Of a stretch of 64,000 nucleotides of DNA, positions 10,857-36,666 are shown in pieces. The position numbers and the translations under genes are program-made. This stretch comes from an uncultured Candidatus Saccharibacteria bacterium (GTDB lineage: Bacteria > Patescibacteriota > Minisyncoccia > Phycocordibacterales > UBA9973): the NCBI GenBank assembly GCA_964639185.1, contig CAZXCN010000001.1, positions 38,626 through 102,625 on the forward strand, in the 5' to 3' direction. The notes under the pieces are model-generated. The model did no database searches. It saw only the letters and a list, made by a program, of their open reading frames with translations, and was not told where the DNA came from. The number at the start of each line of letters is the position of its first letter. The stretch's first letter is position 1.

Positions 10857-10862
10857 TTGTAT

Positions 10863-12710
10863 TTATTCTACAGTTACGCTCTTTGCGAGGTTGCGAGGCT
10901 TGTCTACATCGGCGCCACGAAGGATGGCGGTGTGGTAGGCAAGTAGCTGAAGAGGGATAACAGAGAGTATAGGCATCCATTCGTCAGGAACATCAGGCAC
11001 CTCTATAATATGATCGAAAATATTGCGAGCTTCTTTGTCACTTGCGCGCACGATACCTATCGTCAATGCCCCTCGGGCTTTAACCTCTTGAACATTAGAA
11101 ATAACTTTATCAAGCAAATGTTCATTTGTTGCTACTACAATCACAGGGAAATCTTTCTCCACTAATGCTATTGGACCATGTTTCATCTCTGCTGATGGAT
11201 ACCCTTCGGCATGAATATATGAAATCTCTTTTAACTTTAAAGCCCCTTCGAGTGCTACAGGGAACAGTGCGCCTCGGCCCAAGAACAATGCATTATTTTT
11301 ATTTTTTAATATTTCGGCAACTTCTTTTATTTTATTTTCTTGTTTCAAAACTTCTTCAACTTTGTCACCAATATTTTCCAAAGAATCTACGAGTTTCACA
11401 TAATCAGTTTCAGCAAGCGTGCCACGAGTTTTTGCTAACAATAGTGCAAGGAGTGACAGTATGACAACTTGACCAGTAAATGCTTTCGTACTCGCAACAC
11501 CTATCTCGGGCCCAACGTGTATATATGAACCTGCGTCAGTTGTACGCGCTATTGATGAACCAACAACATTACAAATACCATAAGTCACCGCCCCTTTTTC
11601 TTTTGCCAGAGCCAACGCAGCAAGTGTGTCGGCTGTTTCACCTGACTGTGAAATAGCAATAACAATATCGTGCTTGTTTAATATTGGATTGCGATACCTA
11701 AATTCAGAAGCATACTCTACTTCAACTGGCATCTGGGCCAACTGCTCAACAAGATATTCACCCACCAAACCCGATATCCAAGACGTTCCACACGCCACAA
11801 TAATTAACCTACGCGCAATTGCTAATTGGTCAGATATTTCCTCAAGACCTCGTAAATGTACTGAATGATCAGGAAGAATATGCCCACGCAATGCATCAGA
11901 TATAGTATGAGCTTGTTCAAATATTTCTTTTTGCATGTAATGCTCATAACCATTCTTCTCCAACATTTCGGCTTCGAGTGTTAGCTTTTCTATAAATGGA
12001 GTTTGTGGTACACCCGCAATACTTGAAACATTGTATTCGCCACTGCGCTTCAATATCGCTATCTGATTATCATCCAGATATATAACACTCTTTGTGTATT
12101 CAGATATTGGTGAAGCATCAGATGCAATAAAAAATTCGTGTTCCCCAATACCCACAACAAGTGGACTACCACGACGCGCCACTATCAGTGTGTCAGTATC
12201 ATTTTCATCCATTACTATTATTGCGTATGCTCCAATAACTTGAGTTAGTGCTTCACGTACTGCCTCAAGGAGAGTTAAGTTATCTTTTGTTTTTACTGTT
12301 TCAATAAGGTGTATCAGAACTTCAGTATCAGTATCACTTTTAAATTTATGCCCATCTTTTTCCAAGGCTTTTTTTAATACTGCATAATTTTCTATTATGC
12401 CGTTGTGAATTATTGCGAGTGAACCTGATTCAGACAAATGTGGGTGCGAATTGCGATCAGAAGGTTCGCCATGTGTTGCCCAGCGTGTATGACCTATACC
12501 TATCGTACCTTTGACATTACTGCCATCAGTTAGTTTCAATAGTTCTGCAACTTTACCGTTCTTCTTGTACACACGCATGCTACCGGTACCTGCTTCTTCG
12601 ACAAGTGCTACGCCCGCAGAATCATAACCCCGGTATTCGAGCCTTTGTAAACCTTTGATTATAATAGGGAAGGCTTCGCGCCCCCCGATGTATCCAATAA
12701 TTCCACACAT
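10863..12710 (-). CDS. glmS: Glutamine--fructose-6-phosphate aminotransferase (isomerising)
   Basis: N-terminal MCGIIGY nucleophile-Cys glutaminase domain, two SIS domains, C-terminal ...TVE. 615 aa. Confidence 0.95.
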   Translation of the reverse strand: MCGIIGYIGGREAFPIIIKGLQRLEYRGYDSAGVALVEEAGTGSMRVYKKNGKVAELLKLTDGSNVKGTIGIGHTRWATHGEPSDRNSHPHLSESGSLAIIHNGIIENYAVLKKALEKDGHKFKSDTDTEVLIHLIETVKTKDNLTLLEAVREALTQVIGAYAIIVMDENDTDTLIVARRGSPLVVGIGEHEFFIASDASPISEYTKSVIYLDDNQIAILKRSGEYNVSSIAGVPQTPFIEKLTLEAEMLEKNGYEHYMQKEIFEQAHTISDALRGHILPDHSVHLRGLEEISDQLAIARRLIIVACGTSWISGLVGEYLVEQLAQMPVEVEYASEFRYRNPILNKHDIVIAISQSGETADTLAALALAKEKGAVTYGICNVVGSSIARTTDAGSYIHVGPEIGVASTKAFTGQVVILSLLALLLAKTRGTLAETDYVKLVDSLENIGDKVEEVLKQENKIKEVAEILKNKNNALFLGRGALFPVALEGALKLKEISYIHAEGYPSAEMKHGPIALVEKDFPVIVVATNEHLLDKVISNVQEVKARGALTIGIVRASDKEARNIFDHIIEVPDVPDEWMPILSVIPLQLLAYHTAILRGADVDKPRNLAKSVTVE

Positions 12711-18866: not shown

Positions 18867-20072
18867 TTAATCCTTTATACTGTAACTTGTGGAATTCTTT
18901 GCAAGACCAAGATATGGATTAATGGATCCACCTTTGAATTCAATATGCACGTGTGGGCCTGTCGAGCGACCAGTTGAACCAACGTATCCGATAACATCAC
19001 CCTTCTTTACTGTTTGCCCTGCATGCGAAGCAACAACACTCATATGGGCAAATATTGCCTGCTTGCCATCATTGAAGTTAACAACTACATACAATCCATA
19101 TCCACCATTGTAACCGCTTGAGTCTGTTGTTAGGACAACTCCATCTTGAATAGCATATATAGGTGTACCTTTTGGAGCAGCAAAGTCATAAGCTTGGCCA
19201 TCATGCTGACCTTGTGATATTCGTCCAGTACCAGCAGGGAATGGCCAAATGTATCCTCCTGAAACTTTACCTGAATGAACCATTTGGTTTGGAGTTGCAG
19301 ATTTCTTAGTAGGTGTCTTTACTGAAGTCTTTGGCTTTTCTACTTTTGTAATAGTTGTAGATTTTACACCAACGAGGATCAATGTTTGACCCACTTTCAA
19401 ACTATCACCTTTATCCATAAGGTTGTATTCCAATATATCGCTTGTACTAATACCGTATTTATTTGAAATTCCGCCTAAAGTATCACCCTTTTTCACTACG
19501 TATGAAGCACCTTCTAGAGGGATAATTACGAGTACGGTACCTTCCTCGGTTAATTTACTCTGACTTATATCACTGTTAGCATACAAAATAGAAGCTTTTG
19601 ATACATTGTTTGCCTTAGCAATACTCTCGAGAGTATCACCAGCCTTTACTATATATAGGTTAATTCTAGAATCTGAACCAGAATAACCATTCAAGTCAGC
19701 ATCGGTGCCCATAGGGCCAGTTACTGATTCTAGGGCCTCATCACCAATAATAGTTACATCAGCATCATCAGAGCCTGGCTTCAAGTCGGTAGTTAGGGAA
19801 GATTCCATTAATGGGATATTTTGAGAATTGTGAACTGTACCATTTGATACTTCATCCAAAGCAAATGTCTGACTGCCAAATAACCCACCAATAAAGGAAA
19901 AAAGACCGGCATGAGCTTGGAAAGGTAACACCCAAACAGCCAATATTAGTACCATAGTAGAAAAAGCCTTTGACATATTAGGCTTATTTGATGAGGTTAT
20001 TTCAGTAGGAACGGCTGATCCTGGACTTTCAGGCAAGCTCATATCCTTCTTTGTATTAGAATTTATTTTCAT
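18867..20072 (-). CDS. Secreted peptidoglycan hydrolase: LysM repeats plus M23 (lysostaphin-like) metallopeptidase domain
   Basis: N-terminal TM/signal, two LysM-like segments (GDTLESIAKANNVS; GDTLGGISNKYGIS), and C-terminal M23 motifs (H.G.D; GYVGSTGRSTGPHVHIE). Confidence 0.85.
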   Translation of the reverse strand: MKINSNTKKDMSLPESPGSAVPTEITSSNKPNMSKAFSTMVLILAVWVLPFQAHAGLFSFIGGLFGSQTFALDEVSNGTVHNSQNIPLMESSLTTDLKPGSDDADVTIIGDEALESVTGPMGTDADLNGYSGSDSRINLYIVKAGDTLESIAKANNVSKASILYANSDISQSKLTEEGTVLVIIPLEGASYVVKKGDTLGGISNKYGISTSDILEYNLMDKGDSLKVGQTLILVGVKSTTITKVEKPKTSVKTPTKKSATPNQMVHSGKVSGGYIWPFPAGTGRISQGQHDGQAYDFAAPKGTPIYAIQDGVVLTTDSSGYNGGYGLYVVVNFNDGKQAIFAHMSVVASHAGQTVKKGDVIGYVGSTGRSTGPHVHIEFKGGSINPYLGLAKNSTSYSIKD

Positions 20073-20299
20073 AATTTATTGGGTCTTGCGGTTGGTCAGA
20101 TATATGATCTGTACAGGTATTTCGGTATTTTATAAGGCCTAAACCTTATATCTTTTAATGGTAACCGAAAGCTTTTGTATGGTCAACCAAGATATACACA
20201 ATATTATCCACAATACCTAAAATCCTAAAAATAACCTTATTTTGCCCTATAAGGCCTAAATTTTGACACTATTTATATATACGTGGTATAATTTTTAAT

Positions 20300-22312
20300 A
20301 TGGAAAAACTAAGGGTGGATACACCAAAAGAAAGGGTAGTTTCAGAAAAGCACATAAATGACATCAAAGGGCTATTGGATGTAGACAAGTCACATCAAAG
20401 TGAATTCAATCAGAAAGTTATAGATGAAATAATAAAAGCAGTCTTGAGTGGAAAGACAGAAAAAGCTCTTAAAATACTAGATTTGAAATCTCGTTCTGAA
20501 AATGGGGAACCTGTAACTATAATTCCACAAGAAATCAAGGACAATCTTATCTCTATCTCAAATCAATACAAAGAGGAAAACAATATATCAACTGATGCTG
20601 AACTAAAACACAAGCGTTATACAAACAAGCAAGCAAGGAAAGAATCATGGGAACAAGATAGGGCAAAAATACTTGAACTATTTGATTCATTTGTAAACAA
20701 ATCACCAAAACCTAAATCAAAAATTGATAACAAAAAATCAGGCATGGTAAAAGATGTTATAATCGAAGATATGGTAAAAGAAGAAGTAATTGAAAATAAA
20801 TTCGGTGGCTCTGGAAAAGGCGACAGTGATGAGATTATTGAAAATAAAGATGTTTCTAAACTTTCATTAGTGGAATTAGTACGACGTGGGTACGCATTCA
20901 ATAGCCCTCAAGTTCTTGCTGCGTTAGAAAAATCCAAAATAGATACAGAAAAACAAGAAAAAGAAATACTAGCCAAGATGGAAAGTAAAAAACAAAATTC
21001 TCAAGAAAAAGAAGCAGCTATAGAAAAAATGAGGTTTGAAAACATGATTCGAGACATAAAAACGCTCGAGGGATTAGGACGTCGTTTCAAGAACGATAAA
21101 GAAAAAATAGAATTATGGAAAAATATTTCAGAAAAATATAATTTAGGTATTATATCTATTGACCCAATAAAAAAGGAGGGTAACTCTGCCAAAGAATTTG
21201 CCATACAAAAATACGAGAAATCCTTATTAGAAATCGGAGATATCATAAAAGAGGGTGTAGATAAAGTTGTAATACATGGTAATGATGTTTATGACAAAGA
21301 AACAATGAACGCAACAAGTTTAAGATTTAAAAATGATTTAGACACAAATGGAGCATTATATTTTCTAAATGATATAGCAAATATCAAATACAAAGAAGGA
21401 TCAACAACTGAAGTAGTAAATAAGGGTGGCCGGAGCCAAGAAAACACTGGAAATGTATTGTATGTAGACGTTGGTGGAAGAACCACCGGGGTAGAGAAAA
21501 CAGGAACTGGTAAAAGAGCTTTTATAGATCATCACCAAGAGGAATACAAAACTCATGAAACTTCAGCCACACAAATAACATATGATATTCTTGTAAAGAA
21601 TAAGATAATAGAAGGTGAACCTTGGATGGAAAATTTGGTAAAATTCACTACAAACATGGATAACTTGCAGTATGTGCGGGGTAAAGATTTCGACCTAAAA
21701 TTCTTTAAAGAAAAGTGGCCTAGTAGCCTTTACTCTCTTGCAGAAAAAGTACCATTTAAATATTTAGTACAATGGTTCAAAGAAGGCCGTGATCCAAAAA
21801 ATCCTTTCACAGAAGAAGAGATAAAAAATATTAAGATAGAAAAATATTCCCCAGCTTCAAAAACAATGAGTAAACATTCTTTAGAAGGACTTATAAAAAC
21901 AAATAGCATTGCTGCAGCGAAATCAACTGCAAACATATTATTTGCAAAAGAACAGATGATAAAAAATGCAATAAAAACAAGAACGGACGAGCTTGGAAAA
22001 GTTTTATATAATACGACAGAAGAAGTGATAAATCACCGCACAGGTAATAACTCAATAAACAAAATAGATATAAATGGTTTTATACCATCTACAGCTATGG
22101 GATATGATACATTCATTTCATATAATACTGAAACTCAAAAATATTTTATAAACTCCATTAATTATGACCTTACGAACGCCTACAATAGAATAAAAAAAAT
22201 AGTTCCAGATACAAAATTGATACGCGGGGTGATGATATTGCCACCCAACAACGAAAGCAGAAAGTTAATTACCCCAGAAAAATTATTAAAAATATTAGAT
22301 TTAAAAGAATAA
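20300..22312 (+). CDS. Hypothetical K/E-rich protein with a central DHH-family phosphoesterase-like domain
   Basis: Motifs VVIHGNDVYD, LYVDVGG and AFIDHHQ in the order expected for DHH motifs I-III. Long charged N-terminal region. An extended -10 (TGGTATAAT) lies just upstream. Confidence 0.5.
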   Translation: MEKLRVDTPKERVVSEKHINDIKGLLDVDKSHQSEFNQKVIDEIIKAVLSGKTEKALKILDLKSRSENGEPVTIIPQEIKDNLISISNQYKEENNISTDAELKHKRYTNKQARKESWEQDRAKILELFDSFVNKSPKPKSKIDNKKSGMVKDVIIEDMVKEEVIENKFGGSGKGDSDEIIENKDVSKLSLVELVRRGYAFNSPQVLAALEKSKIDTEKQEKEILAKMESKKQNSQEKEAAIEKMRFENMIRDIKTLEGLGRRFKNDKEKIELWKNISEKYNLGIISIDPIKKEGNSAKEFAIQKYEKSLLEIGDIIKEGVDKVVIHGNDVYDKETMNATSLRFKNDLDTNGALYFLNDIANIKYKEGSTTEVVNKGGRSQENTGNVLYVDVGGRTTGVEKTGTGKRAFIDHHQEEYKTHETSATQITYDILVKNKIIEGEPWMENLVKFTTNMDNLQYVRGKDFDLKFFKEKWPSSLYSLAEKVPFKYLVQWFKEGRDPKNPFTEEEIKNIKIEKYSPASKTMSKHSLEGLIKTNSIAAAKSTANILFAKEQMIKNAIKTRTDELGKVLYNTTEEVINHRTGNNSINKIDINGFIPSTAMGYDTFISYNTETQKYFINSINYDLTNAYNRIKKIVPDTKLIRGVMILPPNNESRKLITPEKLLKILDLKE

Positions 22313-22315
22313 CAT

Positions 22316-23350
22316 ATGGCAAATAAATTTGAATTTACATTTAAAGATGGAACAATCCTTACAGGGAATAGTCTTTCTGATGCATTGTTAAATTCAAAGA
22401 AAAGAAATCCTGTAAAACCAGAGTCTACATCTAAAAATCCAGCAGAAAAAACACCAGAAGAATCCGATAATCTAAAGAGCAAAATAGATGATCTGAATTC
22501 TCGTGGGGTAAAATTTACACAAACAAAAAATGGAGACAAGGAGGTTATTAAGTATGATGACAAAATAGAAACATACACAAATGGTACATTTACTAGTGTT
22601 GAATGGATATTAGATCAAAACAATGATGAGGATATAGATGGGTCAAAATTTGAACCAGTAGAGTTAGATACAAAATTCAACGAACAACTTACTGGGCTTA
22701 TCAAGCAGTACATGGAACTAAATAAAGAAATTATTAAAGAAAAAAATGAGTATAACAAATTAAAAGAAGAAATAAGAGGTATTAAAACAGAAAAATCCAT
22801 GAATGCAGTAGAGGCATTGGAGGAGTTGAAAAGTATTGATAAAAAAATAGAAGAGAAAGATAAAAAATTACAGTCTATGGTTGATAAGAATGAGGAGTGG
22901 CGGAAAATATATGATGAAATAAATATTTTAGAAGAAAATAAATTAAAACCTCATTCCATATTGTACCCAAATGCATATAAAGCATTTAATAAAATAAACC
23001 CAGAAAATACATACCCCATCGACGTACTTAGTAACACAACGGATAAAAAGGGTAATTACCAAGATCCTATGACTTATCACCAAAGAACATTCCATGCGTT
23101 TCAAGAAATAAATGAAGACGAAGGGTATTTTGATATGAGTATTCTAGGTTTTTATAAGATTTTGAAAAATAGAGAAGATGTATCTAACAAAAATGGCATT
23201 GATTCAAAATCACGAAAGGCGATATATAAAGTCATTGGCCCTGATGGATCCATACTGATAGATAATGTTGGGTATAAGGAGGCAAGTAAATTTATGGATA
23301 AAGAATCCGAAAAATATAAAATAAAACTTGAGAAAGAGTTTAGTGTATAA
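22316..23350 (+). CDS. Hypothetical coiled-coil-rich protein (shares IDGSKFEP motif with the downstream gene)
   Basis: ORF. The 25-nt exact repeat shared with the 23370 gene implies paralogous segments. Confidence 0.45.
   Translation: MANKFEFTFKDGTILTGNSLSDALLNSKKRNPVKPESTSKNPAEKTPEESDNLKSKIDDLNSRGVKFTQTKNGDKEVIKYDDKIETYTNGTFTSVEWILDQNNDEDIDGSKFEPVELDTKFNEQLTGLIKQYMELNKEIIKEKNEYNKLKEEIRGIKTEKSMNAVEALEELKSIDKKIEEKDKKLQSMVDKNEEWRKIYDEINILEENKLKPHSILYPNAYKAFNKINPENTYPIDVLSNTTDKKGNYQDPMTYHQRTFHAFQEINEDEGYFDMSILGFYKILKNREDVSNKNGIDSKSRKAIYKVIGPDGSILIDNVGYKEASKFMDKESEKYKIKLEKEFSV
22632..22656. repeat. 25-nt exact direct repeat (ATATAGATGGGTCAAAATTTGAACC), copy 1, encoding IDGSKFEP
   Basis: Identical 25-mer also at 23571-23595 inside the next gene. 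Confidence 0.8.
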
Positions 23351-23369
23351 TTAATTCATATAAATAAAC

Positions 23370-25661
23370 ATGATAGAACCTATGACAATTAATCCGGAAG
23401 AATTAGCGAAAAAAGAAGCAGAATTGCTTGAAAAGGAAGCTCGTATAGCTCACTTGAGCGCAGAAGCAAGTAAACTTGGTGATGGTATTACTGTATTGCT
23501 AAAAACAAAAACTCCCGAGGAATTGCTGGCTATGGGTTTGAGCAAGGAAGAGCTCGAGGGGTTTGGAATAAATATAGATGGGTCAAAATTTGAACCTAAA
23601 AAATACAAAGAAGAGACTAGGGAACAAAAGGCAGTAGAAGAAGCTCGGGAAAAATATGCGAAGGAAATTTCTAAGTATAAAAAGGAAACTAAAATATGGG
23701 ACAAGATGAAGCACCACATAACTCCAGAGAAAAAACATGCCTATATAAATGATAAGTTTCCAAATGTTGCACTCCTAAAGGAATCTTATGATAAAGCCCG
23801 AATAGAATTGGGTAATAAAATGTATTTTGACAAGAAGATGGAGCTGGAAAAAACTGGAAAATCTGACTCTGAAATAAAAGAAGAATTAGATGAATATAAA
23901 AACTATGAAATCAAGTTTGCAATACATTTTGTAGAACATGCAAAAAGTAATGTAATTCGTTCAGAGAGATTACCACTAAATGCTAGAGAATCTTTAAATA
24001 AGACATTAGAATTTACCCAAAAAGCTTACATCCAAACAATGGACAAAGCTTCAAAGGCTTATTCAGCTGTAATGAATTCCAAGGCTATGGATCTTTATAA
24101 AAAAGTGGGAGATTGGGGTTCAAAATCAAAATATGGTCATGCAAACATAAAAGGGTACGATCTTACCGCTGGGAAGTTGGCCCGCTCTGCAGTATTAGGT
24201 CTTGGAACAGGATTTGCTTTCGGCGCTGCAGCTTATGGAATTCGATTTATTCGAGGTACTGCTATTGCTATGGGAGGGGGGATAGCTATCAGTAAGATGA
24301 ATGCTTGGCACCAACAAAGATTAGATATCTTAAATCAAGAAAAAAATGATGCGATGCAATCTCTTTCTGGATTAAATACAGCCGAGCAATTAATAAATCA
24401 AGAAAAAATATCAGATATAGAGAAAAGAATTAGAAAGGAGGATAGGGCTCATATGTTAAAAATGGGTGCAATCGCAGCCCTTATGCTAGGGGCCAACTGG
24501 GGTGCAGCAAAAGCTGAAAATTCCATGTTTGGGCATGGGGCAGAAGAAACTGGAAGTGAACCGAAGTCAAAAGATAAAGAAGAGACAACAGTTACCGAAA
24601 AGAAAGTTGAAGATAAGCCAAAAATCAAAAAACCGGAACCAACTACTGCTCCTAAAACAAAAACCCCAGAGGCAAATAATAATGTTGTAAAAACTCCAGA
24701 AAAAAAATCTATTATCCCAAAAGAAGCCTTTATAGATTCAAAGCACAATATAGGTATTACTTATGCATTTAGAAGTCAGCTAGAAGCCAATAGTGATCTT
24801 GCCCACAAGCTGGGCTATGATGTAGCACCTAATAAACCACAATTCCTTGCAGACCTTGGTAAAAAGCTAGGATACATTGGTGAAAATGGTGACGTGCGTG
24901 TACGCGGAGACGGCATGGGTGCAGCATATGTGTTACACATAGATGCAAGTGGTAATCCATATGTTGAAGAATTTCAAAATGGAATTTCTTCAGATACAGT
25001 TCATCATATTGGTGATAAATTTGAAGACAGGGATGTGCAGGAAAAATATGAATACTATAACGAAAATACTCCTAAAAATACAAGCGCAGGTACTAAAGGC
25101 GAATTCGATGGAGAAGCCACAAGTATTGCCCCATCTGGTACTCGAGCAGAGGGCAGTGCCGACGAATTTGCTGGTGAAGCAAAAGTTGTCCAAGGGGCAC
25201 CTTTGGGTGATAATAATAGTACAGACGGAAAATTTGGCCCGAAAACAAAAAGCGCATTGAACATTTACCAAACCGGAAACAAAGACCTGTTGAGTACAAA
25301 TGGCGTAGCCGAAGAGCTAGCACGTCGAGCAGATGCCATAGCAAATACAAATAGTGCTGGGTTGGATAATATCAACATCGAAAACACTGCATTGTTTATA
25401 AATGAAAAATCTGAAATTTTAAAAAATACATTCAAGAAATTCCTATCTAATGATTATAATCATAAAAATTGGGAACATGTTCAATATAAAAATATGAATG
25501 AATTAGCAAGCAAGGATAACCCGTATGAATTTGCATCCAGAGGTGAGCGTAAGTCTGTAATACGATTATTGAAACAAGCAAAGGAAATGGGTATTGATTA
25601 TCATGACAAGACAGCCGACCAATTGGTAAACGATATGACTAAACACGAATTAGGTAAATAA
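23370..25661 (+). CDS. Hypothetical membrane-associated protein, 763 aa, with a charged coiled-coil N-terminal region, central hydrophobic helices and a P/T/K-rich linker
   Basis: ORF. Hydrophobic segments AVLGLGTGFAFGAAAYGI and MGAIAALMLGANWGAA. No family assignment. Confidence 0.5.
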   Translation: MIEPMTINPEELAKKEAELLEKEARIAHLSAEASKLGDGITVLLKTKTPEELLAMGLSKEELEGFGINIDGSKFEPKKYKEETREQKAVEEAREKYAKEISKYKKETKIWDKMKHHITPEKKHAYINDKFPNVALLKESYDKARIELGNKMYFDKKMELEKTGKSDSEIKEELDEYKNYEIKFAIHFVEHAKSNVIRSERLPLNARESLNKTLEFTQKAYIQTMDKASKAYSAVMNSKAMDLYKKVGDWGSKSKYGHANIKGYDLTAGKLARSAVLGLGTGFAFGAAAYGIRFIRGTAIAMGGGIAISKMNAWHQQRLDILNQEKNDAMQSLSGLNTAEQLINQEKISDIEKRIRKEDRAHMLKMGAIAALMLGANWGAAKAENSMFGHGAEETGSEPKSKDKEETTVTEKKVEDKPKIKKPEPTTAPKTKTPEANNNVVKTPEKKSIIPKEAFIDSKHNIGITYAFRSQLEANSDLAHKLGYDVAPNKPQFLADLGKKLGYIGENGDVRVRGDGMGAAYVLHIDASGNPYVEEFQNGISSDTVHHIGDKFEDRDVQEKYEYYNENTPKNTSAGTKGEFDGEATSIAPSGTRAEGSADEFAGEAKVVQGAPLGDNNSTDGKFGPKTKSALNIYQTGNKDLLSTNGVAEELARRADAIANTNSAGLDNINIENTALFINEKSEILKNTFKKFLSNDYNHKNWEHVQYKNMNELASKDNPYEFASRGERKSVIRLLKQAKEMGIDYHDKTADQLVNDMTKHELGK
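23571..23595. repeat. 25-nt exact direct repeat, copy 2
   Basis: Identical to 22632-22656. Confidence 0.8.
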
Positions 25662-25684
25662 ATTATTAATTAGTATCCTGCTAT

Positions 25685-26017
25685 TTGGCAGGCAAAAATA
25701 TTATGGCATTTGATACAAATACACATTCAATATTGGCAAAAGCTTTGGGGGTAGATGGATTACCCGAAGATAAAAAAGAGGCAATGATAGAATCTGCGGG
25801 GGCTATTGTCTACCAAGCAGTATTAACGAAAGCAATGGAGGAATTACCTGAAGAAGCTCTAGATGAATTCGAGAAAATAATAAACGCTGAACCAACTCCT
25901 GAATTAGTCTTTGCATTCTTCCGAAGTAATATCATGAACTTTGATTCAATGATAGAAGAGGAGGCAAAAGCATTTATCGAAGACGGGCAAAATATTATGA
26001 ATCAGATAGGGGAATAA
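25685..26017 (+). CDS. Hypothetical small acidic protein
   Basis: ORF followed by a strong terminator hairpin at 26041-26080. Confidence 0.35.
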   Translation: MAGKNIMAFDTNTHSILAKALGVDGLPEDKKEAMIESAGAIVYQAVLTKAMEELPEEALDEFEKIINAEPTPELVFAFFRSNIMNFDSMIEEEAKAFIEDGQNIMNQIGE

Positions 26018-28893: not shown

Positions 28894-29790
28894 ATGAATA
28901 ATAATTTTTTACCAAGCAAACAGTTTGCAAAAAGAGCAATAATAATATTTGTTCTTATTGTTGTTGTATTAATACTAACAAAAGTTACTCCTTCCATTAA
29001 AGATAAATTAAATCGGGTAAATACCAATAGACAGCTATCTGTTAGCGAATTAGTAGGGCAGGACAGTAATACAAATGGGATACAAGATTGGGAGGAAATA
29101 TTATGGGGCCTAGACCCAAATGCTGATGGATCAGAAAATAAAAATTTTATAATAAACAAAAAGAAGCAATTAAACGGTGGTGTATTGCCAGCAGAAAATG
29201 ATACTCCGTTGACTGACAACGACAAATTGGCTCGTGAATTCTTTGCTATGATTATATCACTACAACAAAGTGGCAACTTGAACGAAGACGCAATAAAAAA
29301 TATATCAAATTCTGTAGGTGCAAATATTGTTGCTGAAGATCTAAAAGATATTTATACAAAAGATATGCTAGAAATACAAAGCACTACAACTATCACAGTG
29401 GGCAACTATCAAAATGAGATGCGAAAAATAACTCAGAAATATAATAATAGCGATATGGGTAATGAACTATCATTTATCGGCCAAGCCGTAGCAGGGAATG
29501 ACCCTCAGGTATTACGTATAGGTACTTCAATAGCAAACTCATATCGTTCACTGGGCAAAGATATATTAAAAGTGTCTGTACCAACATCATTAGTAACAAC
29601 ACACTTAGAATTGGCAAATAATATGGAGAAAACAGCTCGTTCGATAGAAAATATGCGTACACTACTCGATGACCCAATGGTTGGCATGACAGCAATTGTT
29701 CAGTATAAAAGATACAATGATGCACTGCTCTTAAATTTGGAACAGATTAAAACATTTTTCATTAAAAATGGTATAATAAAATATAATTAA
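28894..29790 (+). CDS. Hypothetical membrane-anchored protein; first gene of the secretion-associated island
   Basis: N-terminal TM anchor (AIIIFVLIVVVLIL). No family. Confidence 0.45.
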   Translation: MNNNFLPSKQFAKRAIIIFVLIVVVLILTKVTPSIKDKLNRVNTNRQLSVSELVGQDSNTNGIQDWEEILWGLDPNADGSENKNFIINKKKQLNGGVLPAENDTPLTDNDKLAREFFAMIISLQQSGNLNEDAIKNISNSVGANIVAEDLKDIYTKDMLEIQSTTTITVGNYQNEMRKITQKYNNSDMGNELSFIGQAVAGNDPQVLRIGTSIANSYRSLGKDILKVSVPTSLVTTHLELANNMEKTARSIENMRTLLDDPMVGMTAIVQYKRYNDALLLNLEQIKTFFIKNGIIKYN

Positions 29791-32760
29791 ATGAGTATAG
29801 ATAGATACAAAAAAATAGTATCTTCAATTACACTAATGGTGTTTGTTTTTTCTACCATTATTGGGCCTACAGCCATAGTCTACGCGGAAGATATTGATAC
29901 TGGAAGTCAGGAGGCTACAACAAACAAAGCAGCTTATACTACGAACAACCCTGCATATACGTTCAATATACAAAATATATCCAATGTTCTACCTGCAGTT
30001 ATAGGGTGTACTGGCATTGTGAATAAAGTAAAGCAATACATGACAAGTGCTTTTGATGGCAATTCCGGAGGTATTTCAAATGATCTTACTTCATCTAAAA
30101 CAGGTACTGGTAATTATAAAGCTGGTTATGATGATGGTAGTGGTAACACAGATATCGATGGATTTAACGCTGGTATAGTAACAGAAAGTGTACCAACTGG
30201 TGATGCCTCTACTCAAAAAAATACACAAAAAAGTGCAGCAGAAGAAGCAAAAATAGCAGAAGAAGAAAAACAAAAGAGAATCAAAGATGAATGTCTAAAT
30301 GGGGTAGCATATGCATTAGCTAAAGCTCAATTGGCATCTATCACAAACAAAACAGTAAATTGGATAAATAGTGGATTCAATGGTGATCCATTATTTATTC
30401 GTGATCGTGAATCATATTTCAAAAGTCTAGGTGACCAAACATTACAAAGCCTACTTGGACCACTTGCAAATATAAATAATCAATCTCTGTATCCATTTGG
30501 ACAAGATTTTGCTCGTTCAGCAATACTATCAGCTAAAACAACATTTTTAGACAGATCAAAATCAACTCTTTCCCAATCATTAAAGCCTGGTGCAACTACA
30601 GAAGATTTTTCCAAAGATTTTAGCCAAGGTGGGTGGGATGGGTGGTTCTCCTTAACACAAAACCCTCAGAATAACCCTCTTGGATTTGGAATCATAGCAT
30701 CACAAGAACTTACTAATAAAATAAATGCAAAACAACAAGAAGCTGAAGCCGACTTGGCTCAAGGTGATGGATTCCTTTCACAAAAGAGGTGTGTGGAATA
30801 TTCAAAATCAGACGAAGGGCTAGATAATACAACAACATCTTCTTCAAAAAATTATAGTATTGTTTCAAATGATACAAATGCAAAACTAACAGGATTCTAC
30901 ATAACTACAAATTCTGTAAATATGGCTATCAAATACCAAGCAGGCGAGCTCGGCACATTGACTGCTTCTATAAAAAATTCTGCAGGTATATCCAAAGGGG
31001 CACAAATAGTTGGTAAAACAAAAAAAGGCAACAATGACCTAGGTACAACTTTCAATAGCTTGTCCGCTTCATCGAAATATGAAGTTAAATTTACATATCT
31101 AGCAGACACAGGTAGTACAGGGGAGAAAACTATTTTAACACTAAATATAACAACCCCTGACAAAGCTACTGGTAATCAGGATACAAATCGTCCAACAAAC
31201 ACATCAACAAATACAAATGCCACCCCTGAATGTATCCGCTGGGAAACAGTAACACCAGGAACAGTTATCGCTGACCAATTAAAGATAAATTTGGGTTCCT
31301 CTGTACGCCAACTTGAACTTGCTGATAGCTTGAATGAATCACTCAGTGCAATATTTGAAGCTCTAGTGAACCAGCTAGTAAATCAAGGTTTATCTAGCCT
31401 AAGTAACATAAAGAATACTTCTACAAATGGATTAGGTGGTGCTGGTAATAATAAAGTTTATGATTCTAGTGGTATTGATATCTCAGGAATATCTGCCGAA
31501 GGAATTCTAGGTAATAAATTATCAGTGAACAAAGGTTCAGGATGGTACAACACAAATGATACATTTGATATAACAAAAGATCTGGGTGATATCTATAAAT
31601 TAGAAAAGGGGAAGAAAGTGTTAGTAAAAAAAGGTATCATAACTATACAATCTGAATACATAACAGCAGTAAAAGCCTCCATGAAAGAAGCTCCACCTAT
31701 TATCCCTGCATTAGGTGAACTTGATTATTGTATTCCGGGGCCAAATCCAAACTGGAAATCAATTGCTGTTCCAAATGTAAATGAAACCATGGCAATTCTA
31801 CGAGACATAGACAAGAATGGTGTTACAACCATTGACACTTCTAACCCAAGAATGGAAGCTATTTACTCTTTTATGAGAGAATACAATCCTGGTTTTAAAT
31901 TAGGGGAAAATATTGGTAATATCTTTACAGCAAAGAGGAAGGCTGGTGAGGCACAACAGCTAAATAGTGCTATAGATGAAAGTTATTATGTTGGTAAATT
32001 ACTATTGAAGTTTAATATACAACTTATTGGTGACCAATATAAATCATACAGAGACAAGATGGACCAATTGTATGGACCAAATTCATCTATGCGTGACCCT
32101 ACTAGTGCGTGGTATTTACCAATGGCTGAAGCAGGTCTAGGATTAACAAAGAACTTGATATCTTACGACCAAAGCATGGGTGGACTCTTGGATGATTACA
32201 CTGACCAAATCAATCAAACAAATGCAAATATTTACAAACTCCAACAAATAAAGAAAAAAGTGGATGCAATAGTGGCAGCTGCTAAAAAAAGACAAGCTGC
32301 AGATATTCGAAGTGGTAAAATACAATTCTGCGCAGAAGAAGCTGGTGGCCCTATAGATACTGGTGTTACAAATGGGGGACTACTTAACAACACTAGCTCA
32401 GGAACAAAACTAAATCCAAATAACAATGGGGCAGTCAGTGGTATTGAACCTATACCAGATTTCAACTTAAGTATTACAGAATCTTTGGAGGATTGTACTG
32501 CAAAAATAATTGCAAAAAATACCTCAATAAATACAGTAGGACCTTATACTTGGAACAGAGTAACAACCGACAAAAACCAATCACAATACAATGCAACTTC
32601 TAAAGATTTTGAGTTTAATGTATCTACCTTTAGCGCATCTGGTCAAGCAAAAGTTACATTAACAATATCTGATACACTTGGTAAACCTATTAGCAAATCA
32701 AAAAACATAACAGTACCAAAAAGAACAAAAACATTATCCGGTCAGGCTTGCCCAATATAA
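29791..32760 (+). CDS. Large secreted protein (989 aa), S/T/N/G-rich, unknown family
   Basis: Signal peptide (KKIVSSITLMVFVFSTIIGPTAIVYA-ED), then low-complexity regions and beta-rich segments. Confidence 0.55.
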   Translation: MSIDRYKKIVSSITLMVFVFSTIIGPTAIVYAEDIDTGSQEATTNKAAYTTNNPAYTFNIQNISNVLPAVIGCTGIVNKVKQYMTSAFDGNSGGISNDLTSSKTGTGNYKAGYDDGSGNTDIDGFNAGIVTESVPTGDASTQKNTQKSAAEEAKIAEEEKQKRIKDECLNGVAYALAKAQLASITNKTVNWINSGFNGDPLFIRDRESYFKSLGDQTLQSLLGPLANINNQSLYPFGQDFARSAILSAKTTFLDRSKSTLSQSLKPGATTEDFSKDFSQGGWDGWFSLTQNPQNNPLGFGIIASQELTNKINAKQQEAEADLAQGDGFLSQKRCVEYSKSDEGLDNTTTSSSKNYSIVSNDTNAKLTGFYITTNSVNMAIKYQAGELGTLTASIKNSAGISKGAQIVGKTKKGNNDLGTTFNSLSASSKYEVKFTYLADTGSTGEKTILTLNITTPDKATGNQDTNRPTNTSTNTNATPECIRWETVTPGTVIADQLKINLGSSVRQLELADSLNESLSAIFEALVNQLVNQGLSSLSNIKNTSTNGLGGAGNNKVYDSSGIDISGISAEGILGNKLSVNKGSGWYNTNDTFDITKDLGDIYKLEKGKKVLVKKGIITIQSEYITAVKASMKEAPPIIPALGELDYCIPGPNPNWKSIAVPNVNETMAILRDIDKNGVTTIDTSNPRMEAIYSFMREYNPGFKLGENIGNIFTAKRKAGEAQQLNSAIDESYYVGKLLLKFNIQLIGDQYKSYRDKMDQLYGPNSSMRDPTSAWYLPMAEAGLGLTKNLISYDQSMGGLLDDYTDQINQTNANIYKLQQIKKKVDAIVAAAKKRQAADIRSGKIQFCAEEAGGPIDTGVTNGGLLNNTSSGTKLNPNNNGAVSGIEPIPDFNLSITESLEDCTAKIIAKNTSINTVGPYTWNRVTTDKNQSQYNATSKDFEFNVSTFSASGQAKVTLTISDTLGKPISKSKNITVPKRTKTLSGQACPI

Positions 32761-32763
32761 TAT

Positions 32764-34110
32764 ATGCAAAACAATCCACACAAAAGCAGAGCATTGATAA
32801 TCACCTTCGTAATAGTACTTGGGCTATTGATAGGTGGATATTTTGTATTTACTAGTGATACATTGTTTGGAGTAGAGAATAGTATTGGTCAAAAATTCTC
32901 ACCATTTCTAACAACACCAAAAGAGAAAAATCTAAATCAGATAGAAGACCCAAACACACTAGACCCAAATGGGGAAATACCCGATACGAATAATACTAGT
33001 ACTGATGATACTCTTGGAACAGACAGTGGATCAGGAGGAACAGGTAATGGATTCTCTGGTAATATTGGGAGCGGGGGAGCAACAGGCGGTATCTACACAT
33101 CACCAACAGGGGGCTCGGTTGCACTTCCAGGAAGCAAAGGGACAGTTATTACATCTAATTTTGTACCTCAATGTAGCGATAAAATAGACAATGATGCAGA
33201 TAAATTAATCGATGCATTAGATCCGGGTTGCCATAGCGACGGAGACGCAAGTAATACAAAGAGTTACAATAAAAACCAATATCTAGAATACAATTTTATA
33301 CCTGCTTGTAATGATGGAATAGACAATGATGCAGATAAATTAATCGATGCACTAGATCCAGTTTGTCATAGTGACAATAATGCAAAAAATCCTGCAACTT
33401 ATACTCCAAATTATACTTCAGAATATGTATCACAAACCAATACAAATAAAGCATCTAGCCAGTGTAATCCAGACGATCTTGCTCTTGTATTTACAGCCGA
33501 GGAACAAGCCGAGCTTGATGAATTGACTCGTCAATTCTATCGCATTGCTCCAACATTAAAGTCAACAAATGATATCCTGATAGAAGACAAGGCTAAACAA
33601 AGCTATATTGACCTAGTAAACAATGCCACAACACTTACAAATGAATGCTATGCGCAAACATATAATGATAAATATTTAGCAAATAGTACCAGCGTTGTAA
33701 CTGAAGGATTTGAAGCACTTAATACCAGATACTCATCGGACACAAAAGAAATCGATGGAACAGCATATGTTATAAAAACTTGGTATCCTTTCTTAAATAA
33801 TCAAAATGGAACACTCATCAGTGGTGGTAAGGAATTCAAAGAATCTTCAAGCTTAAGTATCCCACTATATCCTTATGCAAGCTTGAGTGGTCCAGATGCA
33901 AGTGGCCTAGGGGACAAAGGCAGGACCGAAAGACGAGGTAACCCTTATATAAGTCAAAAACCAGTATCTTCATATTGGCAAATATACGAAACAAAGCAAG
34001 CGACAAGAGACCCTAATGCTAATTATTATGGAAATGTTTACAAAAAAACCATAATTGGAAATAAATACTTCCCTTGGGCTGACTGGGAAAATATGATGGG
34101 TATTTGGTAA
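32764..34110 (+). CDS. Secreted protein with duplicated Cys-flanked D-x-D-x-D calcium-binding-like modules
   Basis: N-terminal TM/signal. Two copies of C.D.IDNDADKLIDALDP.CHSD (dockerin/EF-hand-like acidic loops) with a 33-nt perfect nucleotide repeat. Gly-rich linker. Confidence 0.5.
   Translation: MQNNPHKSRALIITFVIVLGLLIGGYFVFTSDTLFGVENSIGQKFSPFLTTPKEKNLNQIEDPNTLDPNGEIPDTNNTSTDDTLGTDSGSGGTGNGFSGNIGSGGATGGIYTSPTGGSVALPGSKGTVITSNFVPQCSDKIDNDADKLIDALDPGCHSDGDASNTKSYNKNQYLEYNFIPACNDGIDNDADKLIDALDPVCHSDNNAKNPATYTPNYTSEYVSQTNTNKASSQCNPDDLALVFTAEEQAELDELTRQFYRIAPTLKSTNDILIEDKAKQSYIDLVNNATTLTNECYAQTYNDKYLANSTSVVTEGFEALNTRYSSDTKEIDGTAYVIKTWYPFLNNQNGTLISGGKEFKESSSLSIPLYPYASLSGPDASGLGDKGRTERRGNPYISQKPVSSYWQIYETKQATRDPNANYYGNVYKKTIIGNKYFPWADWENMMGIW
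33184..33216. repeat. 33-nt exact direct repeat, copy 1 (ATAGACAATGATGCAGATAAATTAATCGATGCA)
   Basis: Identical 33-mer at 33319-33351, in frame, 135 nt (45 codons) apart. Confidence 0.8.
33319..33351. repeat. 33-nt exact direct repeat, copy 2
   Basis: Identical to 33184-33216. Confidence 0.8.
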
Positions 34111-34111
34111 T

Positions 34112-34142
34112 AAAACAGCGTGTTGAAAAACACGCTGTTTTA
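34112..34142 (+). terminator. Terminator hairpin (AAAACAGCGTGTT..AACACGCTGTTTT)
   Basis: 13-bp perfect inverted repeat with flanking A/T runs after the 32764 gene. Confidence 0.75.
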
Positions 34143-34182
34143 TATAGCAACAGTATTAATGAAATGCTATAATATTTAAAGC

Positions 34183-36615
34183 GTGAAGAAATTCTTGCCA
34201 TACATTTTAACACTATTAGTTGTCGTGAACTTATTCGCGCCATTTAGTGTTATATGGAAAGAAAACAATACTCTATCAGTAACAAAGAACGAGGCTAAAG
34301 CATCAGGTATTATAGTATTAGGAGGAGCTGGACAAATCACTTCAACAGACACCACTATATCAGTAACAGTAACTGCGGAATTTCCTACAGATTTTTCAAA
34401 AATAGATAGCGAAGGGGTTTCTGTTTATTTAAAAAAACCCACAGAAAGTGAGGAAGATGCAAAATTAGAAACCTTAACAGATAATTTCAAAGTTGTTGCT
34501 GATAAAAAAAATACCAAATCAGGTACTGTTGTTTTCCAAGACCTAACTCCCAATACACAATACCAAGTATGGTATGCTGTCTTACAAGACGAAGGTAGTG
34601 TTTGGGGCAAGCTAACAAGTGGTTGGAGGTATGGGTATGACAATACAATATCTGCTGAAGTCAGGAATCCATCTCAAAACTATTATGAAGTAACAACAAC
34701 TTCCGGAGGGCAAGCTAACGTTAACACCGAAACATCAGGTAATGCAGAGGGTATGATGCCCGCTTGTGGTGTATCAACTGGTGATGAATTATTAGGCTGT
34801 GTGGCAAAATTATTCTACTATGCAGTATTCACCACTACATCATTCTTATTTGGATTGGCAGGTAAATTCTTTGACTGGACATTTGCCTACTCTATAACAG
34901 ACACATCATACCGAACAGCTTTTGTGAACGAAGGTTGGGCAATAGTACGTGATATATGTAATATATTTTTTATATTTGTATTGTTATATGCTGCTTTCAA
35001 ATCAATATTTGGCTCACACGAAGCTAAATCAATTGTTATAAATGTAATCATTATTGGATTACTGATAAATTTTAGCCTCTTTGCTGCCCGTATCATGATA
35101 GATGCTTCAAATATTCTAGCTAGATTATTCTATACATCACAAGCAGTAGAAATATTGGCATCAGATAGTAGTGGAAATTATTCAAGGGGTGGGGTGGACA
35201 CACTACAAGATTCTGGATTGGGGGAACTTTCTCTTTCTAGTGCTTTGGTAAATAAAATTAACCCACAAAAAATTATTCTAGGGGCAAGAAATATAAATAT
35301 CAAAGATGATGCTTTGGGTGCAAATGGTAATGCCCAAAACAACAAGAATCAACCAATCGGAATTGGGGCATTTTTCCTTATCACCCTTCTAGCTGTAATT
35401 GTAAATGTGGTTGGACTCTTTGTATTCTTATCTGTTGGCCTTATATTTGTGGCCCGAGTTATTGGATTATGGATTGCTATGGTTTTGGCACCATTTGCAT
35501 TCTTTAGTTACACAGTGCCCAAACTTTCAAAAACAAAAATGCTAGGGTGGAGTAATTGGTGGAGCGATACACTAGGGCTATGTTTTGTAGCACCAATATT
35601 TATGTTTTTCCTTTATTTAATATTACTATTCTTGGAAAATGGATTCTCATCTTTGATAGACCCAAATGTTACTGGAGCAAATTTTGTCTTGGTCACAATT
35701 ATCCCATTTGTATTTATAATGATATTACTAATGACTGCTAAAAAGTTGGCAAAAGAGTATTCAGGAACAATAGGCCAAACAATTACCGGTGCAGTTACTG
35801 CAGTAGGGGCGGCGGCGCTTGGCGGGGCAGCGTTAGGCACAGCATGGGCTGGTAGAGGAGTAGGAAAAGGTTTTAATATGGCATCACAACAAGGAACAAG
35901 ACTCAAAGAAATAAAAGAACAAAAAGCTGCAGGAACATATGTAAAACAAAAGGGTGACTGGAAAGCACAAACATTTGGACGTATTGGTAATCCACTAAAC
36001 AGAACTCAAGAAAAAATAAATAAAGTTGACCACGCTAGACATGAGCTTGATACTCTTACTGAAAAAAAGTTTGGTAAGGGTCAAAGGTTTGAAAGACTTT
36101 CTGGTTATCAAAAAAGTTTGATTCAACAAGAACATGCTAAAAAGGAACGTGCTGGTGTCGAAGAAAAATACAGAAGAGAAAATGGTCTTAGTAAAAGTCA
36201 GGCTCTTACCGCAGCACAAAGAAGTGACGTTGATGCTAAACTATCACATGAATTCGATCATTTCGTTGACGAAGCTAAGAAGAAAATTTCAGGGCTTAGT
36301 CGAGCATTTTCACAAGTCAATACTGGAAGTTGGGATGTTAGAAACATGTCAGATGTAAAACAAGACAGAAGAGAAGGTTTGATAACCAAATTCTCATCAA
36401 AATTAATGTCTGGTACTGCTGGGGGAATGCGTATGGGATTAAATAAAAGTGCTGATATAAATTACGGAAAAGGTTTTGCTGATATTTTTAAGGATCTTGG
36501 CCATACAATAACAGAAGCCTTGAAGAGTGCTAAATTTGAAATAAAAGCCGACGCTTCTCACGGAGCTGGAGCTGCTGAAAGTGGACATGATGCTGGACAT
36601 GGAGGAGGGCATTAG
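34183..36615 (+). CDS. Polytopic membrane protein, VirB6/TrbL-like candidate, with N-terminal FN3-like ectodomain and long charged cytoplasmic tail ending in His/Gly-rich segment
   Basis: Signal/TM, then ectodomain with DLTPNTQYQVWYAV (FN3-like). At least six hydrophobic helices. About 270-aa K/E/R-rich tail ending HGAGAAESGHDAGHGGGH. Assignment to VirB6 is by architecture and context only. Confidence 0.45.
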   Translation: MKKFLPYILTLLVVVNLFAPFSVIWKENNTLSVTKNEAKASGIIVLGGAGQITSTDTTISVTVTAEFPTDFSKIDSEGVSVYLKKPTESEEDAKLETLTDNFKVVADKKNTKSGTVVFQDLTPNTQYQVWYAVLQDEGSVWGKLTSGWRYGYDNTISAEVRNPSQNYYEVTTTSGGQANVNTETSGNAEGMMPACGVSTGDELLGCVAKLFYYAVFTTTSFLFGLAGKFFDWTFAYSITDTSYRTAFVNEGWAIVRDICNIFFIFVLLYAAFKSIFGSHEAKSIVINVIIIGLLINFSLFAARIMIDASNILARLFYTSQAVEILASDSSGNYSRGGVDTLQDSGLGELSLSSALVNKINPQKIILGARNINIKDDALGANGNAQNNKNQPIGIGAFFLITLLAVIVNVVGLFVFLSVGLIFVARVIGLWIAMVLAPFAFFSYTVPKLSKTKMLGWSNWWSDTLGLCFVAPIFMFFLYLILLFLENGFSSLIDPNVTGANFVLVTIIPFVFIMILLMTAKKLAKEYSGTIGQTITGAVTAVGAAALGGAALGTAWAGRGVGKGFNMASQQGTRLKEIKEQKAAGTYVKQKGDWKAQTFGRIGNPLNRTQEKINKVDHARHELDTLTEKKFGKGQRFERLSGYQKSLIQQEHAKKERAGVEEKYRRENGLSKSQALTAAQRSDVDAKLSHEFDHFVDEAKKKISGLSRAFSQVNTGSWDVRNMSDVKQDRREGLITKFSSKLMSGTAGGMRMGLNKSADINYGKGFADIFKDLGHTITEALKSAKFEIKADASHGAGAAESGHDAGHGGGH

Positions 36616-36666
36616 GAAAGATAAGCAGAAAGTAGTAAGGAAATACTAATTTAAAAAATAATTGAA

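Follow-up and report, generated by a model that had tools for sequence, protein, structure and literature searches.

A divergent DHH-superfamily protein at a fixed locus of Patescibacteria: a probable phosphoesterase partnered with a hydrophobic-segment protein

The DNA considered here is a window of 64,000 nucleotides (contig CAZXCN010000001.1 of assembly GCA_964639185.1, positions 38,626 to 102,625, forward strand) from an uncultured Candidatus Saccharibacteria bacterium, and the subject is a set of adjoining genes in it, called gene 1 to gene 4 below. Gene 1 encodes a highly divergent and previously unannotated member of the DHH superfamily. We consider it probable, with some reserve, that its product is a DHH-family phosphoesterase that is encoded in a four-gene operon at a fixed locus and is docked to a partner, the product of gene 3. 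The gene 1 product would be a cytoplasmic, divalent-metal-dependent phosphoesterase in which a linker helix joins a DHH catalytic domain to a DHHA1-like one, and the gene 3 product would be a long helical protein with two conserved hydrophobic segments that are probably embedded in the membrane. Because the two are a single polypeptide in several lineages, the enzyme would most likely operate docked to the gene 3 protein at the membrane. Gene 4, which encodes a DUF5663 protein, would provide a conserved small accessory protein, gene 2 would be a recent mosaic add-on, and the whole operon, at a fixed place in the core genome of Paceibacteria-type Patescibacteria, would be read from a conserved promoter that probably gives a leaderless mRNA.

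The fold of the gene 1 product carries much of this assignment. The AlphaFold2 model of residues 296-670 has a mean predicted local distance difference test score (pLDDT) of 89.1 and a predicted template modelling score (pTM) of 0.87, and the top 20 matches that Foldseek finds for it in the PDB are all DHH/DHHA1 proteins, with probabilities of 0.91-1.0. The best match is Staphylococcus aureus NrnA/Pde2 (8iu7) and the third is Vibrio cholerae PggH (7d62); RecJ (5f55), Bacteroides fragilis Nrn (3w5w), Bacillus subtilis NrnA (5j21) and archaeal RecJ2/GAN also match. The alignments to two-domain DHH/DHHA1 enzymes are full-length, and the second half of the model is matched by the C-terminal domain of AlaRS, which has the DHHA1 fold. 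Profile comparisons at the sequence level lead to the same superfamily: a 23-member profile of the gene 1 family matches PDB 6mtz_A across motifs III-IV (E = 6.5e-5), and the Pfam DHH model (PF01368) is found below its threshold in four of the 23 members (lowest E = 1e-4; highest score 21.8 bits, where the cut-off is 28.1). The Pfam match in member P0027 spans the DxD to just beyond the DHH and confirms the register of the motifs, as does an hhalign comparison with Escherichia coli RecJ, which is statistically weak at E = 0.083 and places motif II on motif II and DHH on DHH. No member of the 23 attains the Pfam DHH threshold, none matches Pfam DHHA1 (PF02272), and searches of the PDB with single sequences returned noise only. 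The preliminary description of this DNA had called gene 1 a DHH phosphoesterase, and the fold, the conservation of the motifs and the sub-threshold profile matches agree with that call.

The family to which gene 1 belongs is large. A word-indexed search with the full-length protein recovered only itself and two relatives, as the charged, lysine- and glutamate-rich (K/E-rich) N-terminus saturated the index; in the alignment of these three proteins, conservation is confined to the last ~375 residues. With a family profile built on residues 296-670 and searched exhaustively against 1.84 billion cluster representatives, at least 393 representatives are found at E <= 1e-3, of which 109 reach E <= 1e-30. 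Within proteins of 340-1445 aa the domain occupies variable positions, behind N-terminal extensions of ~20 to >400 aa, and residues 1-295 of gene 1 align with nothing beyond the closest relative. All members are unannotated, the named ones being entries of the type 'hypothetical protein' in metagenome-assembled genomes of Paceibacterota, Nomurabacteria and Patescibacteria, and no publication about the family or about DUF5663 came up in a literature search. The genes had earlier been taken for ORFans, a term that no longer fits, given the 393 relatives of the gene 1 domain, the five close homologues and the fusions of gene 3, and the partial relatives of gene 2.

Motif conservation was measured on 76 full-length copies of the domain, and the succession of motifs that defines the DHH superfamily (motifs I-IV of Aravind and Koonin: DxD, D, DHH and D, in this order in an alpha/beta N-terminal domain) is present, with approximately the usual spacing. 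Motif I is conserved at 97% (D346) and 100% (D348), motif II at 100% (D390), motif III at 98%, 96% and 100% (D410, H411 and H412) and motif IV at 98% and 97% (D454 and N455); T421 (93%) and S422 (98%) are also nearly invariant. Motifs II and III are those already recognised as LYVDVGG and IDHH in the preliminary description, but the segment proposed there as motif I, HGNDVYD, is not that motif, the true one being D346-x-D348; within HGNDVYD only H326 and G327 are conserved (81% and 78%). From this conservation we infer that the catalytic centre is probably active. The protein has neither a signal peptide nor a hydrophobic segment and is thus expected to be cytoplasmic.

The second domain departs from that of the characterised enzymes. 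A GGGH motif in this domain is characteristic of the DHH/DHHA1 subfamily, and its histidine is needed for activity in mycobacterial NrnA (PMC4081065). The C-terminal half of the gene 1 family contains no conserved histidine in 76 copies, and only position 571 attains 50% His. Conserved instead are G566-K567, N587, K/R598-A-x-G601-x-D603 and R642-G643-x-M645, with R642-G643 encoded at nt 22223-22228. Because GGGH is absent from all 76 copies, the family represents a new, GGGH-less DHH subfamily, in which basic and glycine residues (K567, K/R598 and R642-G643) may replace this substrate-binding motif and the substrate face of the DHHA1-like domain may have been rebuilt.

The partnership with gene 3 is best seen in the fusions. 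Gene 3 has five close homologues (P0005-P0009, 42-59% identity), always just before the genes for DUF5663 and UvrD. The helical module of gene 3 lies in relatives either downstream of the DHH-like domain or fused to it, and a narrow hidden Markov model (HMM) finds it C-terminal to that domain in 8 of 152 family representatives, so that the order of the domains is the order of the genes in the window. Three fusion proteins are given in Table 1. That the two are found in one polypeptide in at least three lineages is the strongest evidence that genes 1 and 3 act together, and this argues for a physical partnership of the products that is frequent and not obligatory. The preliminary description had attributed internal hydrophobic helices and a P/T/K-rich linker to the last protein, and both are found, the former as two Gly/Ala-rich segments. 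The C-terminal domains would lie in the cytoplasm if no more than these two segments cross the membrane, so that a surface location, which the preliminary description had suggested beside a membrane one, is no more than possible. A gene 3 profile found nothing in the PDB or in Pfam. A peptidoglycan-binding-like motif in gene 3, DGKFGPKTKSALNIYQ, which gives weak matches to PG_binding_3 and 1lbu, is not conserved in homologues and was set aside as a chance resemblance.

The genes form a compact unit on one strand. The three co-directional, tightly spaced open reading frames (ORFs) of the preliminary description are reproduced exactly, with gaps of 3 nt between genes 1 and 2 and 19 nt between genes 2 and 3, and the lysine- and glutamate-rich character that it ascribed to their products is borne out by a K+E content of 22-26%, compared with 15-17% in the neighbouring ComM, PNPase and PcrA. 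It had also pointed to a strong extended -10 promoter before gene 1; the site is the sole perfect one among 31 promoter-like matches in the region, a total that does not exceed that in shuffled sequences. The pattern TTTTGAC-N17/18-GTATAAT is common to the window and to four loci of relatives (L002, L001, L011 and L015; loci of relatives are numbered with L and family proteins with P), at 6-8 nt from the ATG, across gene 1-type proteins whose identity falls to ~39%. In the window, the -10 box of gene 1 ends 7 nt before the ATG, and no Shine-Dalgarno sequence was found upstream; all five loci probably express gene 1 from a leaderless mRNA, and the retention of promoter and spacing down to such identities supports a real, conserved leaderless transcript. 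Obvious Shine-Dalgarno sequences were not found for genes 2 and 3 either.

The transcription unit most likely comprises four genes and runs from 20300 to 26017. The mechanically called ORF of gene 4 opens at TTG 25685; its homologues align only from ATG 25703, that of L002 with an alignment that opens at M7, and GGCAGG stands just before this ATG, which is probably the true start of a 104-aa product. The hairpin that follows gene 4, ahead of pcrA/uvrD, probably acts as a terminator or an attenuator at the end of the unit. The position of the DUF5663 gene between gene 3 and UvrD is conserved when HMMs are mapped over the loci of relatives. In L016, two DUF5663 genes (2122-2412 and 10822-11127) each adjoin a gene for a very large protein (1516 and 1264 aa), which suggests that DUF5663 is accessory to giant proteins.

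The locus is a fixed core-genome position in Patescibacteria of the Paceibacteria type and not an island. In every relative with enough flanking sequence, the genes for GlmS, PNPase, a 299-aa protein, a DksA-type zinc finger protein, ComM and, on the opposite strand, a LysM-M23 peptidase precede the DHH-like gene, and the same order continues through further genes to DUF5663, PcrA/UvrD and RsmA. Home-made HMMs were mapped over 17 loci, which represent 11 distinct contexts. In 10 of the 11, an M23 gene lies upstream of the DHH-like gene in divergent orientation and UvrD follows 0-9 kb downstream, the exception to the M23 neighbour being a domain-only member, P0035, beside a NUDIX gene. The GC content of the locus is like that of its surroundings, and it has no PHROG, phage or plasmid matches.

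Table 1. Coordinates of the gene 1-4 unit, of its parts and of the adjoining features in the window, followed by the fusion proteins of relatives (residue numbers refer to the respective protein).
Feature	Position	Strand	Basis or remark
LysM-M23 peptidase gene, conserved left neighbour of gene 1	18867-20072	-	Pfam LysM and Peptidase_M23 on homologues
Sigma-70-type promoter TTGACA-18-TGgTATAAT	20263-20292	+	12/12 match, with upstream TG
Gene 1	20300-22312	+	670 aa; ORF list
Gene 1 N-terminal K/E-rich region, residues 1-295	20300-21184	+	Not conserved; K+E 28%
Gene 1 DHH-like catalytic domain, residues 296-527	21185-21880	+	Motifs, AlphaFold2 model, Foldseek, profile matches
Gene 1 motif I, D346-x-D348	21335-21343	+	DLDTNGALYFL
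Gene 1 motif II, D390	21467-21469	+	LYVDVGG
Gene 1 motif III, D410-H411-H412	21527-21535	+	IDHH
Gene 1 motif IV, D454-N455	21659-21664	+	Alignment of 76 copies
Gene 1 linker helix and DHHA1-like C-terminal domain, residues 528-670	21881-22312	+	Foldseek alignments
Gene 2	22316-23350	+	344 aa; ORF list
25-nt direct repeat, copy 1	22632-22656	+	IDGSKFEP in gene 2
Gene 3	23370-25661	+	763 aa; ORF list
25-nt direct repeat, copy 2	23572-23596	+	IDGSKFEP in gene 3
Gene 3 helical module, residues 81-215	23610-24014	+	Most widely conserved part
Gene 3 hydrophobic segment, residues 265-308	24162-24293	+	Gly/Ala-rich; hydropathy
Gene 3 hydrophobic segment, residues 360-381	24447-24512	+	Gly/Ala-rich; hydropathy
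Gene 3 P/T/K/E-rich linker, residues 396-460	~24555-24749	+	63% P+T+K+E
Gene 3 conserved C-terminal domains	C1, residues 440-572; C2, residues 636-763	+	Homologue alignment
Gene 4, small acidic DUF5663 protein (probable start)	25703-26017	+	Pfam DUF5663 weak in window, clear in homologues
Perfect 19-bp inverted repeat, 5-nt loop	26029-26071	.	Between gene 4 and pcrA/uvrD
Fusion P0018	L015, 1442 aa		DHH-like 176-742; gene 3-type 813-1395; hydrophobic 969-993, 1070-1092
Fusion P0049	L016, 1264 aa		DHH-like 26-403; gene 3-type 516-785; hydrophobic 656-687
Fusion ORF of L022	L022, 1353 aa		DHH-like 354-718; gene 3-type 1092-1217, corresponding to gene 3 of the window 440-572 (C1); hydrophobic 955-981, 1049-1067

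Gene 2 differs in kind from its neighbours. It consists of an N-terminal domain (residues 1-106), a coiled coil and a C-terminal domain (residues ~169-344). The first of these matches the N-terminus of a single 824-aa gene that follows gene 1 in the closest relative, L002, the remainder of which matches gene 3 from residue 81. The C-terminal domain matches the C-termini of same-slot proteins elsewhere (P0162 of L009, also L009_506, with 60% identity, and L011_539), proteins of unrelated length, and gene 2 is absent from L001, L005, L007, L008, L015 and L016. By these comparisons, gene 2 is a lineage-specific mosaic and probably a recent add-on. It had been counted as one of two coiled-coil partners of the DHH protein, a role that its mosaic and lineage-specific character does not support, and of the three genes proposed together as one module, genes 1 and 3 do co-occur elsewhere and are fused in some genomes. 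The in-frame fusion of the gene 2 N-terminal part to gene 3 in L002 is a further sign that these products belong together.

The 25-nt segment that genes 2 and 3 share had been noticed before, and it is indeed an exact direct repeat, with dissimilar flanks and no counterpart in 100 shuffles even at 3 mismatches. Compared with L002, the window has ~0.94 kb of extra sequence; copy 1 lies at the left edge of this segment, and copy 2 lies ~10 codons from the right edge of the indel, described as downstream of and inside that edge. Since residues 1-67 of gene 3 resemble the N-terminus of the gene 3 protein of L007, the split state is probably the older one, and the fused gene of L002 probably arose by a deletion. 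In either case the repeat sits at a junction prone to recombination, and it might also be a short patch of gene conversion. That it is the target-site duplication left by a mobile insert was considered and is less likely than a deletion on the way to L002 or a local gene conversion: the 915 nt between the copies have same-slot homologues (of the gene 2 C-terminal domain in L009/L011 and of the gene 3 N-terminus in L007), and no transposase or integrase was found in this segment. The sequence is unlikely to be an artefact of assembly, as each of the gene 1, gene 2 and gene 3 products is on record from two independent contigs (NCBI and Logan).

The same slot is variable in other relatives as well. 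The proteins at L005:7932-9863, L008:2110-4146 and L009:8038-9996, which lack the DHH domain, share an N-terminal module with residues 23-162 of the gene 1 product of L002 (62-65% identity), and the L005 protein contains a 33-aa segment that is 82% identical to the N-terminus of the L008 gene 3 product. These mosaics, read from sequence comparison, indicate repeated recombination among the genes of the slot that adjoins the M23 gene.

Several observations weigh against the proposed reading. No Pfam or NCBIfam model reaches its threshold with the gene 1 protein (in Pfam, none at E <= 1), and scans of the products of genes 1-4 against Pfam, NCBIfam and PADLOC yielded no significant match. Neither GGGH nor GGH occurs in any of the 76 domain copies, and in consequence the substrate class cannot be transferred from known relatives. 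The hydrophobicity of gene 3 is borderline for membrane insertion and topology (maximum KD19 of 1.37), and its AlphaFold2 model is poor (pLDDT 46.6). The slot is occupied by a DHH-less protein in L005, L008 and L009, the context of L013 differs, and L026 has only the M23, DHH and UvrD genes, without a gene 3 partner. Finally, where genomes are small and seldom rearrange, a conserved gene order is weak evidence that a function is shared with ComM, PcrA or PNPase.

As to the substrate, a 5'-phosphorylated short oligonucleotide, single-stranded DNA (ssDNA) or a nucleotide is possible, and we propose it tentatively; the enzyme would then be an exonuclease or phosphatase of the NrnA/RecJ type. Such substrates are favoured by analogy, since all structural neighbours act on them, since the second domain appears to have the nucleic-acid-binding DHHA1/AlaRS-C fold, and since Paceibacteria-type organisms depend on nucleotide salvage. 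The position of gene 1 among the PNPase, ComM and PcrA genes is in keeping with a nucleotide-salvage substrate. In a more specific and rather speculative form, the GGGH-less subfamily would be a dedicated, membrane-docked nuclease or phosphatase of Paceibacteria, held by gene 3 with DUF5663 near the LysM-M23, ComM and PcrA functions, that converts imported or turnover nucleic-acid fragments to mononucleotides; or else the altered second domain would serve a substrate class new to DHH enzymes.

Among the alternatives, a phosphoesterase that acts on a phosphate outside nucleic acids (pyrophosphate, polyphosphate, or a lipid- or wall-linked phosphodiester) together with envelope machinery such as the M23 peptidase, or the GH25 muramidase in L011, is unlikely, and no other alternative comes out ahead of it. 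The replacement of GGGH by other conserved basic residues would accommodate such a substrate, as would the constant LysM-M23 neighbour and the GH25 gene downstream in L011/L012. However, structures of family II pyrophosphatase and PPX1 match the gene 1 model poorly (Foldseek probability of 0.12), the second domain resembles the DHHA1/AlaRS-C nucleic-acid-binding fold, and gene 1 has the features of a cytoplasmic protein.

Slightly less likely still is a signalling role, which the preliminary description had considered in general terms; the membrane-tethered enzyme would here be a cyclic- or linear-dinucleotide phosphodiesterase of the GdpP/Pde2/PggH kind that turns over cyclic di-AMP (c-di-AMP), pApA or pGpG on an envelope signal sensed by gene 3. 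The prominence of NrnA/Pde2 and PggH among the Foldseek matches, the conserved cell-wall hydrolase neighbour and a tethering to a hydrophobic-segment protein that recalls GdpP are all compatible with it, but the operon and the scanned neighbours contain no cyclase, GGDEF, PAS, DAC or HD-GYP domain, and the GGGH motif, which is nucleotide-binding, is missing. Moreover, according to a survey of gut genomes, 0% of Patescibacteria species carry a diadenylate cyclase (PMC12901056), and Rfam scans of the window, of its M23/gene 1 intergenic region and of the relatives detected no known RNA and no c-di-AMP riboswitch.

A catalytically dead DHH scaffold of the Cdc45/GAN type, serving as a structural subunit of a membrane complex, is very improbable: archaeal GAN/RecJ2 and Cdc45-type entries are among the Foldseek matches and GGGH is lost, but conservation of the four metal-binding and catalytic motifs at 96-100% in 76 divergent copies would be unexpected for an inactive scaffold. 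Least credible of all is the defence-related module suggested earlier, here an anti-phage or otherwise mobile system in which a DHH nuclease would be the effector and two coiled-coil proteins its sensors or partners. The mosaic slot with its varying N-terminal modules and whole genes, a PemK toxin-antitoxin gene in the equivalent region of L007 and weak PADLOC matches of gene 2 (coiled-coil/TPR-type and Avs3a, best E = 2e-4) might speak for it, but genes 1, 3 and 4 have no PADLOC match, phage and plasmid signals are lacking, and chromosomal position, promoter and neighbours (PNPase, ComM, M23, PcrA and RsmA) stay constant down to 39% protein identity.

Further features were seen around the locus. 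In the intergenic region between the M23 gene and gene 1, a block at ~20158-20186, GTCAACCAAG.TAT.CAC, is common to all five aligned regions, and its minus strand, with TTGACC, probably supplies the -35 element of the divergent M23 promoter. A conserved block of ~180 nt between the M23 start and the gene 1 promoter is present in L001:9640-9830, L011:7640-7830 and L015:6630-6830 (minus strand) and absent from the window; its core, AGTACGACCGC...GCGAAgGCTgTA, has a predicted stem with two compensatory changes and matches no Rfam family, and it may be a 5'-untranslated-region element of the LysM-M23 peptidase gene. Toxin-antitoxin genes lie in or near the equivalent region in L007 (141-476, PemK) and L002 (309-879, RelB and a ParE/YafQ-family toxin); those stretches of the window that were scanned gave none.

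Beyond RsmA, at 28894-37578, large co-directional genes (298, 989, 448, 810 and 303 aa) have no Pfam match and are syntenic in relatives, for example in L005 (298, 988, 446 and 906 aa); they make up another conserved, uncharacterised block. A VirB4/TraG-type P-loop ATPase gene follows at 38676-40505 (TraG P-loop domain, E = 2e-24), and the gene at 41581-43035 gives a weak match, below the Pfam threshold, to a type IV secretion system pilin (T4SS-pilin, E = 6e-5). Taken together, the two point to an apparatus resembling type IV secretion, ~13 kb beyond the gene 1-4 unit in the downstream direction. On the other side, at 4156-6050 of the minus strand, an Exo_endo_phos nuclease/phosphatase gene adjoins a gene for a XerC/D-type tyrosine recombinase; since the same pair is found in L001, the Xer gene is probably a housekeeping gene and not part of a mobile element.

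The genomes of Patescibacteria (candidate phyla radiation, CPR) are small and rich in unannotated genes, and the present assignment, which offers a fold and a probable chemistry for a family of several hundred proteins so far listed as 'hypothetical' and encoded at a fixed place in the core genome, is of direct use in annotation. It also widens the DHH superfamily by a group that keeps the four catalytic motifs but has lost GGGH, a motif regarded as essential in DHH/DHHA1 enzymes, and that is repeatedly fused to a partner with hydrophobic segments. The family is thus well suited to a study of how the second domain can rebuild its recognition of substrates, and a candidate for nanoRNA or ssDNA end-processing activity in these episymbionts. 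If the membrane-docked salvage nuclease were confirmed, it would represent a lineage-specific solution for organisms unable to make nucleotides.

The gene 1-4 locus is apparently not a system of a new kind, and its closest parallels can be set out in turn. PDB 6mtz chain A (SSGCID HepC.19480.a, 355 aa) is an uncharacterised protein and the only solved one found by a sequence profile; it shares with gene 1 a DHH...TSAT-like...W...D segment over motifs III-IV, but only ~50 residues align, and as it has neither annotation nor a paper that could be found, it carries no functional information. Family II pyrophosphatase and PPX1, which have a DHHA2 domain, match gene 1 poorly (1i74 and 2qb6), and gene 1 has no Pfam DHHA2 match. 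GdpP has the order transmembrane-PAS-GGDEF-DHH-DHHA1, and like gene 1 with gene 3 it joins a DHH-type enzyme to hydrophobic helices, here in the same polypeptide (in the fused homologues) or in one operon. In contrast to GdpP, however, the order here is DHH-DHHA1-like, helical module, hydrophobic segments and C-terminal domains, GGGH is absent, and no PAS or GGDEF domain was found in genes 1-4 or in seven long family members, so these proteins are not GdpP.

RecJ (5f55, 2zxo and the E. coli protein) is nearer. It shares a DHH/DHHA1-like core and the long connecting helix with gene 1 (Foldseek probability of 0.99), and motifs II and III are in register; gene 1 moreover adjoins the DNA helicase genes ComM and PcrA/UvrD. 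Unlike RecJ, gene 1 stops at residue 670, right after the DHHA1-like domain, without an OB-fold or extra C-terminal domains, it lacks a GGH-type motif, and the RecJ-normalised TM-score is just 0.26. Compared with NrnA/Pde2 (8iu7, 5j21 and 3w5w), gene 1 has only ~10-14% identity and no GGGH, contains an insertion of ~18 residues between the conserved His-Gly and the DxD, carries a long K/E-rich N-terminal extension, falls below the Pfam DHH and DHHA1 thresholds and is coupled or fused to a hydrophobic-segment protein. Nevertheless, the NrnA/Pde2 enzymes are its best structural matches, with the same two-domain DHH and DHHA1-like fold of ~320-375 residues joined by a linker helix, and with motifs I-IV in the same order and at similar spacing.

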